This document shows, one piece after another, positions 17,489-24,862 of a DNA stretch of 64,000 nt. The notes below the pieces were generated by a model. It was not told the DNA's origin. It made no database searches and worked only from the letters and a program-made list of their open reading frames with translations. This stretch comes from Escherichia coli (GTDB taxonomy: Bacteria > Pseudomonadota > Gammaproteobacteria > Enterobacterales > Enterobacteriaceae). The stretch lies in assembly GCF_003334335.1 (NCBI RefSeq), contig NZ_QOWQ01000003.1. The stretch is one strand, 5' to 3'. Numbering within the stretch: position 1 is the first letter of the stretch; each line of letters begins with the position of its first letter. The translations under genes were made by a program, and so were the position numbers.

Positions 17489-18199
17489 ATGAACGCTGAG
17501 CGTAAATTTCTTTTTGCCTGTCTTATTTTTGCGCTGGTCATTTACGCTATCCACGCTTTCGGTTTATTCGATCTGCTCACCGATTTACCCCACTTACAGA
17601 CACTCATCCGCCAGAGCGGATTTTTCGGCTATAGCCTCTATATTCTGTTATTCATCATTGCCACCCTCTTGCTGTTACCAGGAAGCATACTGGTGATCGC
17701 GGGAGGAATAGTTTTTGGCCCGCTCTTAGGGACACTACTCTCATTAATTGCCGCCACGCTGGCCTCCTCGTGCTCATTCCTGCTGGCGCGCTGGCTGGGA
17801 CGTGATTTACTGCTGAAATACGTTGGCCATAGCAATACCTTCCAGGCCATTGAAAAAGGCATTGCGCGTAACGGTATTGATTTTCTTATTCTGACCCGCT
17901 TAATCCCGTTGTTTCCTTACAATATTCAAAATTACGCTTACGGATTAACCACAATCGCCTTCTGGCCTTATACCCTTATTTCGGCACTCACGACCCTACC
18001 CGGTATTGTTATTTATACCGTGATGGCAAGCGATCTCGCCAATGAAGGCATTACGCTGCGCTTTATTTTACAACTCTGTCTGGCGGGCCTGGCGCTGTTT
18101 ATTCTCGTCCAGCTCGCAAAACTCTACGCCCGACACAAACATGTGGATCTGTCTGCTTCGCGCCGCAGCCCACTTACTCACCCAAAAAATGAAGGATAG
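17489..18199 (+). CDS. ydjX: TVP38/TMEM64 (DedA-superfamily) inner membrane protein
   Basis: Internal ATG at 17489 gives 236 aa; polytopic membrane protein. Confidence 0.8.
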   Translation: MNAERKFLFACLIFALVIYAIHAFGLFDLLTDLPHLQTLIRQSGFFGYSLYILLFIIATLLLLPGSILVIAGGIVFGPLLGTLLSLIAATLASSCSFLLARWLGRDLLLKYVGHSNTFQAIEKGIARNGIDFLILTRLIPLFPYNIQNYAYGLTTIAFWPYTLISALTTLPGIVIYTVMASDLANEGITLRFILQLCLAGLALFILVQLAKLYARHKHVDLSASRRSPLTHPKNEG

Positions 18200-18203
18200 A
18201 ACG

Positions 18204-18881
18204 ATGTTGCAACATTATTCAGTGTCATGGAAAAAAGGACTGGCTGCACTCTGTTTACTGGCTGTTGCTGGGCTTAGCGGCTGCGATCAACAAGAGAATG
18301 CGGCGGCAAAAGTGGAATACGACGGACTTTCGAACAGCCAACCGCTGCGTGTCGATGCCAATAACCATACGGTAACCATGCTGGTGCAAATTAATGGTCG
18401 TTTCCTCACCGACGACACTCGTCACGGTATTGTGTTTAAAGATGGCTCCAACGGACATAAATCGCTGTTTATGGGTTATGCGACCCCGAAAGCATTTTAT
18501 GAAGCCCTGAAAGAGGCAGGTGGTACGCCGGGCGAAAACATGACGATGGATAATAAAGAAACGACTCATGTCACAGGCAGCAAACTGGATATTTCGGTCA
18601 ACTGGCAAGGGGCGGCAAAAGCGTATTCCTTCGATGAAGTGATTGTTGACAGTAATGGCAAGAAACTGGACATGCGCTTTGGCGGTAATTTAACGGCAGC
18701 AGAAGAGAAGAAAGCGGGTTGCCTGGTGTGTCTGGATAGCTGCCCGGTCGGCATCGTCAGCAATGCAACATACACTTATGGTGCGGTTGAAAAACGTGGT
18801 GAAGTTAAATTCAAAGGCAATGCCTCAGTTCTCCCGGCGGATAACACGCTGGCAACGGTTACCTTTAAAATCGCCGAATAA
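18204..18881 (+). CDS. ydjY: predicted lipoprotein YdjY
   Basis: ATG at 18204 with AAGGAT ribosome-binding site; 225 aa; lipobox LSGC; C-terminal Cys cluster CLVCLDSC. The ORF-track N-terminal extension overlaps ydjX and is rejected. Confidence 0.8.
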   Translation: MLQHYSVSWKKGLAALCLLAVAGLSGCDQQENAAAKVEYDGLSNSQPLRVDANNHTVTMLVQINGRFLTDDTRHGIVFKDGSNGHKSLFMGYATPKAFYEALKEAGGTPGENMTMDNKETTHVTGSKLDISVNWQGAAKAYSFDEVIVDSNGKKLDMRFGGNLTAAEEKKAGCLVCLDSCPVGIVSNATYTYGAVEKRGEVKFKGNASVLPADNTLATVTFKIAE

Positions 18882-18895
18882 AGCCAGGATAAAGG

Positions 18896-22835: not shown

Positions 22836-23488
22836 TGCTCTGCGTGAAAAATGTTTCGCTACGTTTACCAGAAAGCCGCTTGCTGACAAACGTTAACTTT
22901 ACGGTGGATAAAGGTGACATTGTCACGTTAATGGGGCCGTCTGGCTGTGGAAAATCCACTCTGTTTTCATGGATGATTGGTGCACTGGCCGAACAGTTTT
23001 CTTGTACAGGTGAGCTATGGCTCAATGAGCAACGGATTGACATCCTACCCACCGCACAGCGTCAGATTGGCATTCTTTTTCAGGATGCACTGTTATTTGA
23101 CCAGTTCAGTGTCGGGCAAAATTTACTGCTGGCGCTACCGGCGACACTTAAAGGGAATGCCCGACGTAATGCCGTGAATGATGCACTTGAGCGTTCAGGC
23201 CTTGAGGGAGCTTTCCATCAGGATCCTGCCACTTTGTCTGGCGGTCAGCGAGCGCGCGTTGCTCTACTACGCGCCCTTCTCGCCCAACCAAAAGCGTTAC
23301 TCCTGGATGAGCCATTCAGCCGTCTTGATGTGGCTCTGCGCGATAATTTTCGCCAGTGGGTGTTCAGCGAAGTTCGCGCCCTGGCGATCCCCGTCGTTCA
23401 GGTAACGCACGATCTCCAGGATGTTCCTGCTGATAGTTCTGTTCTGGATATGGCGCAGTGGTCAGAAAATTACAACAAACTGCGATAA
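22835..23488 (+). CDS. ynjD: ABC transporter ATP-binding protein
   Basis: ATG at 22835 overlapping the ynjC stop (TAATG) gives 217 aa; Walker A GPSGCGKST and ABC signature LSGGQRARV. Confidence 0.85.
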   Translation: MLCVKNVSLRLPESRLLTNVNFTVDKGDIVTLMGPSGCGKSTLFSWMIGALAEQFSCTGELWLNEQRIDILPTAQRQIGILFQDALLFDQFSVGQNLLLALPATLKGNARRNAVNDALERSGLEGAFHQDPATLSGGQRARVALLRALLAQPKALLLDEPFSRLDVALRDNFRQWVFSEVRALAIPVVQVTHDLQDVPADSSVLDMAQWSENYNKLR

Positions 23489-23554
23489 CGCAAAGTTTTT
23501 CTCAATGCGTCAGTTCAGAATGGCGCACTCAAAACTACAATGTCGGGATTTTCG

Positions 23555-24862
23555 ATGAAACGTGTTTCTCAAATGACCGCGCTGGCAATGGCTTTAGGGC
23601 TGGCTTGCGCTTCTTCGTGGGCCGCTGAACTGGCGAAGCCTCTTACACTTGACCAGCTTCAACAACAAAATGGCAAAGCGATAGATACTCGCCCCAGCGC
23701 GTTTTATAACGGCTGGCCACAAACCTTAAATGGCCCTTCTGGTCATGAACCTGCCGCCTTAAACCTCTCTGCCAGCTGGCTTGACAAAATGAGCACCGAA
23801 CAGCTCAACGCGTGGATCAAGCAACATAACCTGAAAACCGATGCTCCGGTGGCGCTGTACGGTAATGACAAAGATGTCGACGCCGTCAAAACGCGACTGC
23901 AAAAAGCAGGTTTAACGCATATCTCCATCCTGAGTGACGCGCTAAGCGAACCTTCCCGTCTGCAAAAACTGCCGCATTTTGAGCAGCTGGTTTATCCGCA
24001 ATGGCTGCACGACCTGCAACAAGGTAAAGAGGTTACGGCGAAACCTGCCGGTGACTGGAAAGTCATTGAAGCGGCCTGGGGCGCTCCTAAGCTTTACCTT
24101 ATCAGCCATATTCCCGGCGCTGACTACATCGATACCAACGAAGTGGAAAGTGAACCGCTGTGGAACAAAGTTTCTGATGAACAACTAAAAGCGATGCTGG
24201 CAAAACACGGCATTCGCCATGACACCACGGTCATTCTGTATGGGCGTGACGTATACGCTGCAGCGCGTGTGGCGCAGATTATGCTTTATGCTGGCGTGAA
24301 AGATGTGCGCCTGCTGGATGGCGGCTGGCAAACCTGGTCCGACGCGGGACTGCCTGTTGAGCGCGGAACGCCACCGAAAGTGAAAGCGGAACCGGATTTC
24401 GGCGTGAAGATCCCGGCACAACCGCAGTTGATGCTCGATATGGAACAGGCCCGTGGACTGCTGCATCGCCAGGATGCATCGCTGGTGAGCATTCGTTCGT
24501 GGCCAGAATTTATCGGTACGACCAGCGGTTACAGCTATATTAAACCAAAAGGTGAAATAGCCGGCGCACGTTGGGGACACGCTGGTAGCGACTCGACGCA
24601 TATGGAAGATTTTCATAACCCGGATGGCACCATGCGCAGCGCCGATGATATTACCGCTATGTGGAAAGCGTGGAATATCAAACCAGAGCAGCAAGTTTCA
24701 TTCTACTGCGGCACCGGCTGGCGCGCGTCCGAAACCTTTATGTACACACGCGCCATGGGTTGGAAGAATGTTTCCGTGTATGACGGCGGCTGGTACGAAT
24801 GGAGCAGCGATCCAAAAAATCCGGTAGCAACCGGTGAACGCGGCCCGGACAGTAGCAAATAA
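23555..24862 (+). CDS. ynjE: periplasmic multi-domain rhodanese (thiosulfate sulfurtransferase)
   Basis: ATG at 23555 gives 435 aa with signal peptide; rhodanese active-site loop CGTGWR present (FYCGTGWRASETF). Confidence 0.88.
   Translation: MKRVSQMTALAMALGLACASSWAAELAKPLTLDQLQQQNGKAIDTRPSAFYNGWPQTLNGPSGHEPAALNLSASWLDKMSTEQLNAWIKQHNLKTDAPVALYGNDKDVDAVKTRLQKAGLTHISILSDALSEPSRLQKLPHFEQLVYPQWLHDLQQGKEVTAKPAGDWKVIEAAWGAPKLYLISHIPGADYIDTNEVESEPLWNKVSDEQLKAMLAKHGIRHDTTVILYGRDVYAAARVAQIMLYAGVKDVRLLDGGWQTWSDAGLPVERGTPPKVKAEPDFGVKIPAQPQLMLDMEQARGLLHRQDASLVSIRSWPEFIGTTSGYSYIKPKGEIAGARWGHAGSDSTHMEDFHNPDGTMRSADDITAMWKAWNIKPEQQVSFYCGTGWRASETFMYTRAMGWKNVSVYDGGWYEWSSDPKNPVATGERGPDSSK

Follow-up and report, generated by a model that had tools for sequence, protein, structure and literature searches.

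Eight co-directional genes, ydjX, ydjY, ydjZ, ynjA, ynjB, ynjC, ynjD and ynjE, occupy positions 17489–24862 of a 64,000-nt stretch of Escherichia coli DNA (contig NZ_QOWQ01000003.1 of assembly GCF_003334335.1; the whole stretch is called the window hereafter), and the convergent gene ynjF follows downstream. We propose that these nine genes constitute a common redox module and assign this reading a probability of about 0.6. It builds on the gene order, the co-regulation, the family memberships, the conserved neighbourhoods and the domain fusions described below. The chemistry of the module most likely concerns thiols, sulfur or selenium at the inner membrane. The lipoprotein YdjY, a DedA membrane protein and an extracytoplasmic rhodanese are a recurrent unit in diverse bacteria; a second such unit unites an ATP-binding cassette (ABC) importer of the YnjBCD type with a DedA protein, a CDP-alcohol phosphatidyltransferase and a disulfide-type reductase, and E. 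coli combines both. The genes, the operon and its control by FNR are already on record and the locus itself is no discovery. The links at the level of the system, i.e. YdjY–DedA–rhodanese, importer–DedA–phosphatidyltransferase–reductase and ynjA–ynjF, appear to be undescribed in the literature we searched. They join an orphan ABC importer, two of the eight E. coli DedA proteins, YdjY, YnjE and YnjF into one conserved system with a chemistry class. A block of y-genes thereby becomes a testable system, and the interval of interest should be extended to ynjF. Questions that can now be addressed in E. coli include the role of COG0398 DedA proteins and their frequent fusion to disulfide reductases, the specific acquisition of selenium and the effect of a ynjC mutation under colistin.

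YdjY, DedA proteins and rhodaneses recur together

In order to survey the neighbourhood of YdjY, we scanned one genome per species in 100,044 species, found 92 loci and kept 80 of them. E. coli proteins and cluster representatives served as queries against the open reading frames (ORFs) at these loci, and neighbours were assigned from our own ORF calling and phmmer thresholds. Among enterics, YdjY loci are present in Escherichia and one Citrobacter. Those of the Firmicutes belong to Peptostreptococcus, Finegoldia, Gemella, Facklamia, Catonella, Clostridium, Bacillus benzoevorans and Thermincola, and others were found in Desulfobacterota, Syntrophia, Sulfurospirillum, Campylobacter and one spirochaete. 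At 61 of the 80 loci a DedA gene shares the strand of YdjY and is no more than 600 bp away from it, and this holds for 39 of 46 lineages. Seven loci carry no DedA gene, and five of these seven are on short contigs (<11 kb). An earlier annotation made from the letters of the window without database searches (the sequence-only reading) had named co-occurrence of the DedA pair with the ABC system as a check on the unity of the locus. This check came out positive in both directions: in addition to the 39 lineages with DedA next to YdjY, YnjB-type importers accompany DedA in three Firmicutes loci devoid of YdjY, and YdjY together with DedA in seven non-enteric lineages. The latter loci encode YnjB-like proteins (185–251 bits), split YnjC-like permeases and an ATPase.

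Domain fusions connect the same partners. Twelve long members of the YdjY family were inspected, four of which are fused to a rhodanese and two to a VTT/DedA domain. The YdjY–rhodanese fusions and the YnjE-like rhodaneses encoded next to YdjY in Campylobacter, Catonella and a Peptostreptococcaceae metagenome-assembled genome bear signal or lipoprotein peptides and the loop CG[TS]GWR.

With 388 clusters in 1.84 billion representatives, the family itself is rare. E. coli YdjY belongs to it with 145 bits against a cutoff of 50 (NF040466/PF27149), contains the C-x2-C-x3-C motif and the histidine, and is 45–60% identical to its counterparts in Firmicutes, Desulfobacterota and Campylobacterota. Its lipobox LSGC is followed by Asp at +2, in line with the rule for retention at the inner membrane, and the cluster CLVCLDSC spans residues 173–180. 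His74, Cys173, Cys176 and Cys180 are invariant in the alignments, even in distant fused members. YdjY matched no Pfam-A family in the library scanned, and no relative with a solved fold was found, the PDB sequence matches reaching only E 0.3–0.5. UniProt labels YdjY homologs as ‘4Fe-4S ferredoxin-type’. Judged from the motifs this label is probably wrong, because the cysteine motif is short (only C-x2-C-x3-C-P), the profile matches are insignificant (Pfam Fer4_3, E 0.35) and the N-terminus has KK, not the RR of a twin-arginine motif, together with a lipobox. In Catonella morbi the spacer between ydjY and the DedA gene contains a match to the Rfam ‘Clostridiales-1’ RNA (L039:10571–10678, + strand; 49.5 bits against a gathering threshold of 48).

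An importer-based unit and the place of ynjF

The second unit is most apparent in Firmicutes. YnjB-type proteins are widespread in Bacillaceae, and in Staphylococcus, Halobacillus and Carnobacterium, which lack YdjY, an operon encodes, in this order, the binding protein, one or more permeases, the ATPase and a VTT/DedA protein. Two of these three operons also contain a CDP-alcohol phosphatidyltransferase gene, and all three adjoin a gene for a flavoprotein resembling TIGR03169 (‘Nterm_to_SelD’). An additional redox protein is present in each: a MerA/Lpd-like flavin-dependent (FAD) disulfide oxidoreductase in Staphylococcus and Carnobacterium and a thioredoxin in Halobacillus. In Clostridium sp. 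CX1 the importer genes share one strand with the YdjY and DedA genes in the order ynjB-C-C-D-ydjY-ydjZ-ydjX.

YnjF contains the motif of CDP-alcohol phosphatidyltransferases (PF01066) in the form DGLDGALAR-RRELTDA-GGFLDISLD, and its orthologs carry PF01066. At four Firmicutes YdjY loci a YnjF-like gene stands directly upstream of the YnjB-like gene. Kluyvera, Citrobacter rodentium and a Citrobacter-like record have a syntenic locus without ydjY that retains ydjX, ydjZ, ynjBCD and ynjE; YdjX orthologs in Kluyvera and Citrobacter are 73–77% identical, and C. rodentium has a single VTT gene, ∼32–34% identical to both YdjX and YdjZ. At all three loci ynjF shares bases with the gene for the YnjA ortholog (57% identity, E 2e-79); the overlap measures 8 bp at L091 and L092 and 11 bp at L090. 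On the grounds of this overlap in enterics and of the YnjF homologs beside YnjB-type importers in Firmicutes, we propose ynjF as the ninth member of the module; in Citrobacter and Kluyvera it is coupled translationally to ynjA.

Assignments of YnjF as phosphatidylcholine synthase (Pcs) or phosphatidylinositol-phosphate (PIP) synthase were rejected, as it scores below the curated NCBIfam cutoffs: 63 against 180 for archaetidylinositol-phosphate synthase, 42 against 170 for PIP synthase and ∼20 for Pcs. Choline import followed by Pcs, and phosphatidylinositol-phosphate synthases, are known pathways that serve for comparison. As in choline import with Pcs, the E. coli locus places an ABC importer beside a phosphatidyltransferase with an intact DG-x2-AR-x7-G-x3-D-x3-D motif, whereas YnjF stays below every NCBIfam equivalog, Pcs and the phosphatidylinositol-phosphate synthases included. 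The position of the importer beside YnjF suggests that a head group may be imported and then attached to a lipid. A flippase-like TIGR00374 protein recurs near YdjY in five lineages. With the phosphatidyltransferase, the DedA family, such flippase-like neighbours and the colistin effect described below, the lipid theme is strong.

Organization and regulation of the E. coli locus

The interval is part of the E. coli chromosome: megablast gave 100% identity to several complete genomes, and 5425 of 5426 complete E. coli genomes carry it, 5380 of them at a coverage of at least 80%. RefSeq annotation mapped onto the window gives eight genes on the + strand, all in frame and without internal stops, in the order listed above and with confirmed start and stop codons: ydjX (17489–18199), an inner-membrane DedA/VTT protein of the COG0398 (TVP38/TMEM64) type by RefSeq and Pfam PF09335; ydjY (18204–18881), the lipoprotein; ydjZ (18896–19603), a second DedA/VTT protein (PF09335) and the ortholog of the DedA accompanying YdjY in other phyla; ynjA (19603–20151), an AhpD/CMD-family protein with the CxxC sequence CLCEFC (Pfam CMD); ynjB (20161–21327), the periplasmic substrate-binding protein of the importer; ynjC (21300–22835), a fused double permease of 511 aa; ynjD (22835–23488), an ABC ATPase of 217 aa; and ynjE (23555–24862), a periplasmic three-domain rhodanese. 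On the − strand, ynjF (24871–25491) lies 8 bp beyond ynjE. The successive junctions from ydjX to ynjE measure +4, +14, −1, +9, −28, −1 and +66 bp; that of ydjZ and ynjA reads CTGATGG and that of ynjC and ynjD reads GCTAATGC.

The sequence-only reading had described seven tightly packed co-directional genes. Seven such genes are indeed present, but the interval contains an eighth, ynjE, after the 66-bp spacer. The TGATG and TAATG junctions and the 28-bp overlap of ynjB with ynjC proved exact, while two of the remaining junctions, described as 1-bp, 4-bp or overlapping, are 9 and 14 bp long. The protein features it had listed (the DedA pair, the CLVCLDSC lipoprotein, the CLCEFC protein, a full ABC importer and the CGTGWR rhodanese) were all found.

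A published genome-wide study of FNR (chromatin immunoprecipitation sequencing and RNA sequencing) describes ydjXYZ-ynjABCD as one operon that is activated directly by FNR from a site at −60.5, and ynjE as a separate FNR class II unit. The single operon assumed in the sequence-only reading thus holds for the seven genes from ydjX to ynjD, but not for ynjE, which, being listed separately, is co-regulated rather than shown to be co-transcribed. Upstream of ydjX we located the FNR box TTGAGAAAAATCAA (17366–17379, no strand assigned; centre 17372.5), one mismatch from TTGATnnnnATCAA. The predicted transcription start lies at ∼17433, the position of the box agrees with the published −60.5 site, and TATACC, ∼7 nt upstream of the predicted start, is a plausible −10 element. 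No near-consensus FNR box was found for ynjE: the best candidate is a half-site (7/10) at 23325, and the published coordinate, once mapped, showed no motif. A consensus scan of the ynjD–ynjE spacer identified a sigma-70-like promoter on the + strand (TTCAGA-16-TACAAT, 23514–23541). According to the literature, ynjABCD is mildly induced by overproduction of BaeR, and ynjE–ynjF is named in a published list of convergent pairs with overlapping transcripts. A search of Rfam for riboswitches found none between positions 16000 and 33000 of the window (E up to 0.1), and seven Firmicutes loci likewise had none.

The DedA proteins YdjX and YdjZ

Both proteins contain the VTT/DedA domain PF09335 (YdjX, E 7e-26; YdjZ, E 2e-24) and are 26% identical to each other. 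YdjZ shares 54% identity (E 1e-87) with a Finegoldia DedA protein. Lipid flippases and scramblases make up the DedA superfamily, and published work places YdjZ in its COG0398 branch; YdjX belongs there by homology. COG0398 is described as the branch closest to the eukaryotic scramblases and as often fused to pyridine-nucleotide disulfide oxidoreductases. The residues linked to the flipping of undecaprenyl phosphate are reportedly missing from its members, which are predicted not to flip this lipid. YdjX and YdjZ accordingly have the VTT domain in common with the UptA flippases (COG0586) and the TMEM41B/VMP1 scramblases, with their branch nearest the latter, whereas on the equivalog model of UptA-type undecaprenyl-phosphate flippases (NF052604, cutoff 250 bits) YdjX scores only 27.5 and YdjZ only 36.4 bits, and we rejected this function. 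The DedA study ties COG0398 to aerobic metabolism; in contrast, the YdjX/YdjZ pair is activated by FNR.

A thiol relay through membrane cysteines of YdjZ was also considered. C113 is conserved in 100% and C152 in 94% of 52 aligned sequences (E. coli YdjZ and 51 orthologs), which is uninformative because the whole protein is highly conserved. In Desulfobacterota a DedA protein is fused to an HdrD-like Fer4+CCG domain. Firmicutes orthologs of YdjZ carry, as a fusion, a small membrane domain of four helices with a W-L-E-M-R motif, which forms the N-terminus of YdjZ-like DedA proteins of ∼390 aa in Finegoldia, Peptostreptococcus and Gemella (the first 130 residues of L006:10718–11911). In many taxa the W-L-E-M-R protein is encoded by a separate gene after ydjY (L063:3311–3685, L079:9505–9900, L036:10659–11051 and L004:10666–11130). 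It has no NCBIfam match and no counterpart in the E. coli locus.

The importer YnjBCD

A binding protein with a visible signal peptide, a permease and an ATPase are encoded together, as in type I ABC importers. YnjB matches NCBIfam PRK11622 with 560 bits, a subfamily of its own, as well as Pfam SBP_bac_8, and had no match in the PDB by sequence. Structure prediction had been suggested earlier as a way to the ligand class of YnjB, and it did not deliver one: the AlphaFold 2 model (predicted local distance difference test score 86.6) retrieved in Foldseek only generic cluster-D binding proteins, namely PotD/PotF, STM0429, FbpA and YdcS, at 12–18% identity and template modelling scores of 0.6–0.66, for which reason we claim no ligand class. 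The invariant residues of YnjB are mostly aromatic, acidic or amide, and none is Arg or Lys; judged by these residues, we lean towards a cationic or polar ligand.

YnjC has weak matches to the ModB, CysT, WtpB and PhnU2 permeases, and its homolog is split into two genes in Firmicutes. The ThiP and FbpB permeases are fused, like YnjC. YnjD scores 130–146 bits against the PhnT2, sulfate and ThiQ ATPases in NCBIfam, in each case below the equivalog cutoff. We could thus not sustain the database label ‘putative thiamine transport’, i.e. membership in ThiBPQ (YnjD, 130 bits against ThiQ cutoffs of 245–298), and PotABCD and PhnSTUV likewise fell below curated cutoffs. In summary, YnjB is of the same fold class as the cluster-D importers PotABCD, ThiBPQ, PhnSTUV and FbpABC, and YnjD resembles PhnT2 and ThiQ, whereas the low identity of YnjB, the missed equivalog cutoffs and the separate PRK11622 subfamily set the system apart. 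The earlier statement that no substrate is established for the transporter holds, as the literature searched gives none. Two published phenotypes concern ynjC: the mutation P213S brings a strong gain in fitness under colistin, and deletion lowered the uptake of a cationic dye.

The thiol protein YnjA and the rhodanese YnjE

YnjA belongs to the CMD/AhpD family (PF02627, E 5e-8). Its CxxC (C76-E-F-C79) aligns with that of PA0269, which together with AhpD is among its relatives in the PDB. The top NCBIfam match is ‘YciW-related (seleno)protein’ with 101 bits, below the cutoff. YnjA is probably the cytoplasmic thiol reductase of the module.

YnjE is a sulfurtransferase of the rhodanese/MST type that matches PDB entries 3IPO and 2WLR and has the six-residue loop CGTGWR. 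The protein has been crystallized and is periplasmic, with poor activity towards thiosulfate or 3-mercaptopyruvate. It is also strongly homologous to EanB, the anaerobic ergothioneine synthase of Chlorobium limicola (6KU1, 6KTV and 6H98), with E ∼1e-87 to 6KU1 over residues 33–427. Both are three-domain rhodaneses with the CGTGWR loop and a conserved SGY(S/N)YIK segment, and EanB is reported to take its sulfur from polysulfide. In contrast to EanB, YnjE is exported by a signal peptide and the E. coli locus has no gene for the histidine methyltransferase EanA. By its export and gene context YnjE does not fit an ergothioneine synthase of the EanB kind, in spite of the homology.

Sulfur, selenium and arsenosugar genes near YdjY

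The sequence-only reading had raised periplasmic handling of sulfane sulfur or selenium, given the rhodanese and the nearby selD. In the window selD (31053–32102, − strand) is 6.2 kb from the end of ynjE, with ynjF, nudG, ynjH, gdhA, ynjI and topB in between. Comparison gave this suggestion more substance through rhodanese fusions, SelD and YedF, a desulfurase, CysNC and reductase neighbours of the HdrD, MerA and SelD-N-terminal kinds, but the assignment remains an inference. Five lineages have SelD, and seven have YedF, within 10 kb of YdjY; for five or more SelD lineages the binomial P is ∼8e-5 at a generous chance rate of 1% per lineage. A Desulfobacterales locus (L083) has co-directional SelD-YedF-YdjY, a Syntrophaceae locus (L029) CCG-DedA, YdjY, a small protein and SelD, and L087 YedF, an SclA-like protein and SelD near YdjY. 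In Facklamia, SelD-YedF-SelB-SelA flank the YdjY cluster, and DsbD-like and ResA-like proteins are encoded nearby. The SclA-like desulfurase and a CysNC gene also adjoin YdjY. The latter, a fused CysN/CysC (sulfate adenylyltransferase and adenosine-phosphosulfate kinase; L022:5802–7772, Syntrophorhabdaceae; 358 bits against a cutoff of 336), is located directly upstream of genes for CCG-DedA, YdjY, ArsS, TIGR04282 and TIGR04283.

YedE/YedF with SelD, and the thiosulfate uptake system TsuA/TsuB (YeeE/YeeD), resemble the present system in pairing a membrane protein with a small sulfur carrier and in their link to selD by genomic context. Here, in contrast, a DedA protein takes the place of the YedE/YeeE-type membrane protein, the carrier would be a rhodanese with YdjY, and yedF is absent from the E. 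coli locus.

The ‘arsenosugar biosynthesis’ set co-localizes with YdjY and DedA in 8–9 lineages (ArsS in 8, TIGR04282 in 9 and TIGR04283 in 8, with scores above the NCBIfam cutoffs). This system was rejected for E. coli, as it is absent within 10 kb of ydjY at the Escherichia and Citrobacter loci. ArsS and the YnjB-type importer never share a locus (no overlap between 8 and 9 loci; P 0.009 in ‘extended’ loci, defined post hoc, and P 0.33 over all loci), a hint at ‘make’ and ‘import’ versions of one system. A nucleoside-hydrolase-like protein, a kinase and a C-GCAxxG-C-C protein are further recurring neighbours of YdjY.

A working model and its alternatives

In the following model every chemical step is inferred, as are the element concerned and the idea that its carrier is a lipid. 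Two conserved cores are merged in E. coli. Core A comprises YnjBCD, a COG0398 DedA protein, YnjF and a cytoplasmic disulfide-type reductase (YnjA; elsewhere a MerA/Lpd-like or SelD-N-terminal-like flavoprotein), and core B the extracytoplasmic lipoprotein YdjY with its putative site of one His and three Cys, a DedA protein and the extracytoplasmic rhodanese YnjE. A polar, probably cationic, head-group precursor would be imported by YnjBCD and coupled to a lipid by YnjF. YdjX and YdjZ would flip the resulting lipid-linked species, reactive with sulfur or selenium, between the leaflets. YnjA would keep up its reduction on the cytoplasmic side, while in the periplasm YnjE, as a persulfide or perselenide carrier, and YdjY might load or unload sulfane sulfur or selenium. 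This is the mechanism we favour, tentatively and at somewhat less than even odds: a module induced anaerobically through FNR, whose redox chemistry of thiols, sulfur or selenium would span the inner membrane and involve lipid-linked species. A still more specific version strikes us as quite unlikely: a lipid-borne transmembrane shuttle for redox equivalents or chalcogens, in which COG0398 DedA proteins flip a dedicated phospholipid with a thiol or selenol head group, supplied by YnjBCD import or the ArsS route and attached by YnjF, and in which reducing power or S/Se atoms are ferried between YnjA, or a MerA-like or HdrD-like reductase, and YdjY/rhodanese clients. If true, such a shuttle would be a mechanism undescribed in any organism and the first defined function for the COG0398 branch.

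Several points weigh against the favoured mechanism. The lineages counted here are not fully independent, and the neighbour calls depend on ORF calling and phmmer thresholds. Many YdjY loci, e.g. in Gemella and Finegoldia, consist of the YdjY–DedA pair alone without a sulfur or selenium gene nearby. Since the syntenic loci of Kluyvera, C. rodentium and the Citrobacter-like record lack ydjY, YdjY is dispensable in related enterics and thus not essential to the enteric module. The fold of YnjB does not reveal a ligand. Adjacency of SelD may only mark selenoprotein genes, as the ArsS, C-GCAxxG-C-C and PrdB-like families include selenoproteins, and Staphylococcus, which is not known to use selenium, has core A. 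Purified YnjE is barely active on thiosulfate or 3-mercaptopyruvate, and the FNR study annotates it as molybdopterin synthase sulfurtransferase, placing it in cytoplasmic molybdopterin synthesis. The full-text literature searched yielded no functional study of ydjX, ydjY, ydjZ, ynjA, ynjB, ynjD or ynjF, and no experiment in the literature searched ties these genes to sulfur, selenium or lipid phenotypes.

The locus could instead serve dedicated acquisition of selenium without a lipid. YnjE and YdjY would capture selenium as perselenide or selenotrisulfide, DedA would act as the conduit, and YnjA, elsewhere the fused HdrD-like or flavoprotein reductases, would release selenide for SelD, which would make this the specific selenium uptake route of E. 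coli. The four gene arrangements with SelD or YedF described above (L083, L029, L087 and the selenocysteine genes flanking the Facklamia cluster), the five SelD lineages, selD in the window and the ‘Nterm_to_SelD’-like reductases beside YnjB operons all speak for this route. FNR control would fit the anaerobic use of selenoprotein formate dehydrogenases. Reviews cite a DedA mutant with altered selenite uptake, and according to the abstract of PMC2744661 the carrier specific for selenite in E. coli had yet to be identified. We nevertheless consider the route unlikely, since it leaves YnjF and the ABC importer unexplained, most YdjY loci have no selD nearby, adjacency of the selenocysteine machinery may have the trivial cause given above, and the aromatic or acidic invariant residues of YnjB are not suggestive of an oxyanion site. 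Core A is also present in Staphylococcus and Halobacillus, neither of which is known to use selenium. At the other extreme, there may be no common pathway at all: YnjBCD would import an ordinary cationic nutrient such as a polyamine, thiamine or aminoethylphosphonate, YnjE would act in molybdenum cofactor synthesis or general sulfur transfer, and the DedA proteins, YdjY, YnjA and YnjF would have separate housekeeping roles, sharing only the locus and FNR control. This would agree with the nearest folds of YnjB, with database labels of its homologs as spermidine/putrescine or thiamine binding proteins, with the lowered dye uptake of the ynjC deletion, with the annotation of YnjE in the FNR study and with the dispensability of YdjY. 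It is very unlikely in our view, as the gene set recurs in differing orders in Firmicutes, Campylobacterota, Desulfobacterota and enterics, YdjY is fused both to rhodanese and to DedA, and ynjA and ynjF are translationally coupled in relatives; moreover, YnjD and YnjC miss the equivalog cutoffs of ThiQ, PotA and PhnT by a wide margin, and an exported YnjE fits cytoplasmic molybdopterin synthesis poorly.

The lowest odds go to the handling of metals or metalloids, in which the Cys3-His site of YdjY would bind As(III), Hg, Cu or Te and pass it through DedA to a reductase. Such a relay would resemble the Mer or Ars systems and, in the anaerobes, might supply a pathway to organoarsenical sugars or lipids. 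Three cysteines, as are invariant in YdjY, suit trigonal As(III) coordination. The mercury relay MerP-MerT-MerA has a similar layout, with a cysteine protein outside the cytoplasm, a conduit in the membrane and a cytoplasmic reductase of the disulfide family, and the MerA-like flavoproteins of core A reach 358–380 bits to TIGR02053 (cutoff 454). In contrast to the Mer relay, homologs of MerT and MerP are missing, a DedA protein stands in as the membrane part, E. coli has an AhpD-like reductase, and no metal-sensing regulator is present, the operon being under FNR. The arsenosugar families beside YdjY, among them ArsS, the radical SAM enzyme of arsenosugar synthesis, and the mild BaeR induction of ynjABCD also favour metalloid handling. 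However, ArsS and the two transferases are missing from the E. coli locus, no arsM, arsC, arsB/acr3 or mer transport gene was seen among the annotated neighbours, and the NCBIfam arsenosugar names stem from one cyanobacterial case.

Base composition, gene starts and database entries

The G+C content changes in steps within the operon, from 48% in ydjX and ydjY through 52% in ydjZ to 56–57% in ynjA, ynjB and ynjC (whole window, 49.6%). This step, together with the 50–55% identity of YdjY and YdjZ to Firmicutes proteins, suggests a mosaic origin. RefSeq starts were adopted for all genes. Mechanical ORF starts lie upstream of the annotated ones for ydjX (TTG at 17441 versus ATG at 17489), ynjB (20158 versus 20161), ynjE (23540 versus 23555) and xthA (16504 versus 16516). 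Some database entries from Escherichia-like contigs appear as fusions of YdjX with YdjY (P0242, 451 aa) and of YnjA with YnjB (P0122, 574 aa); errors of gene calling or frameshifts at the 4-bp and 9-bp junctions are the probable cause.

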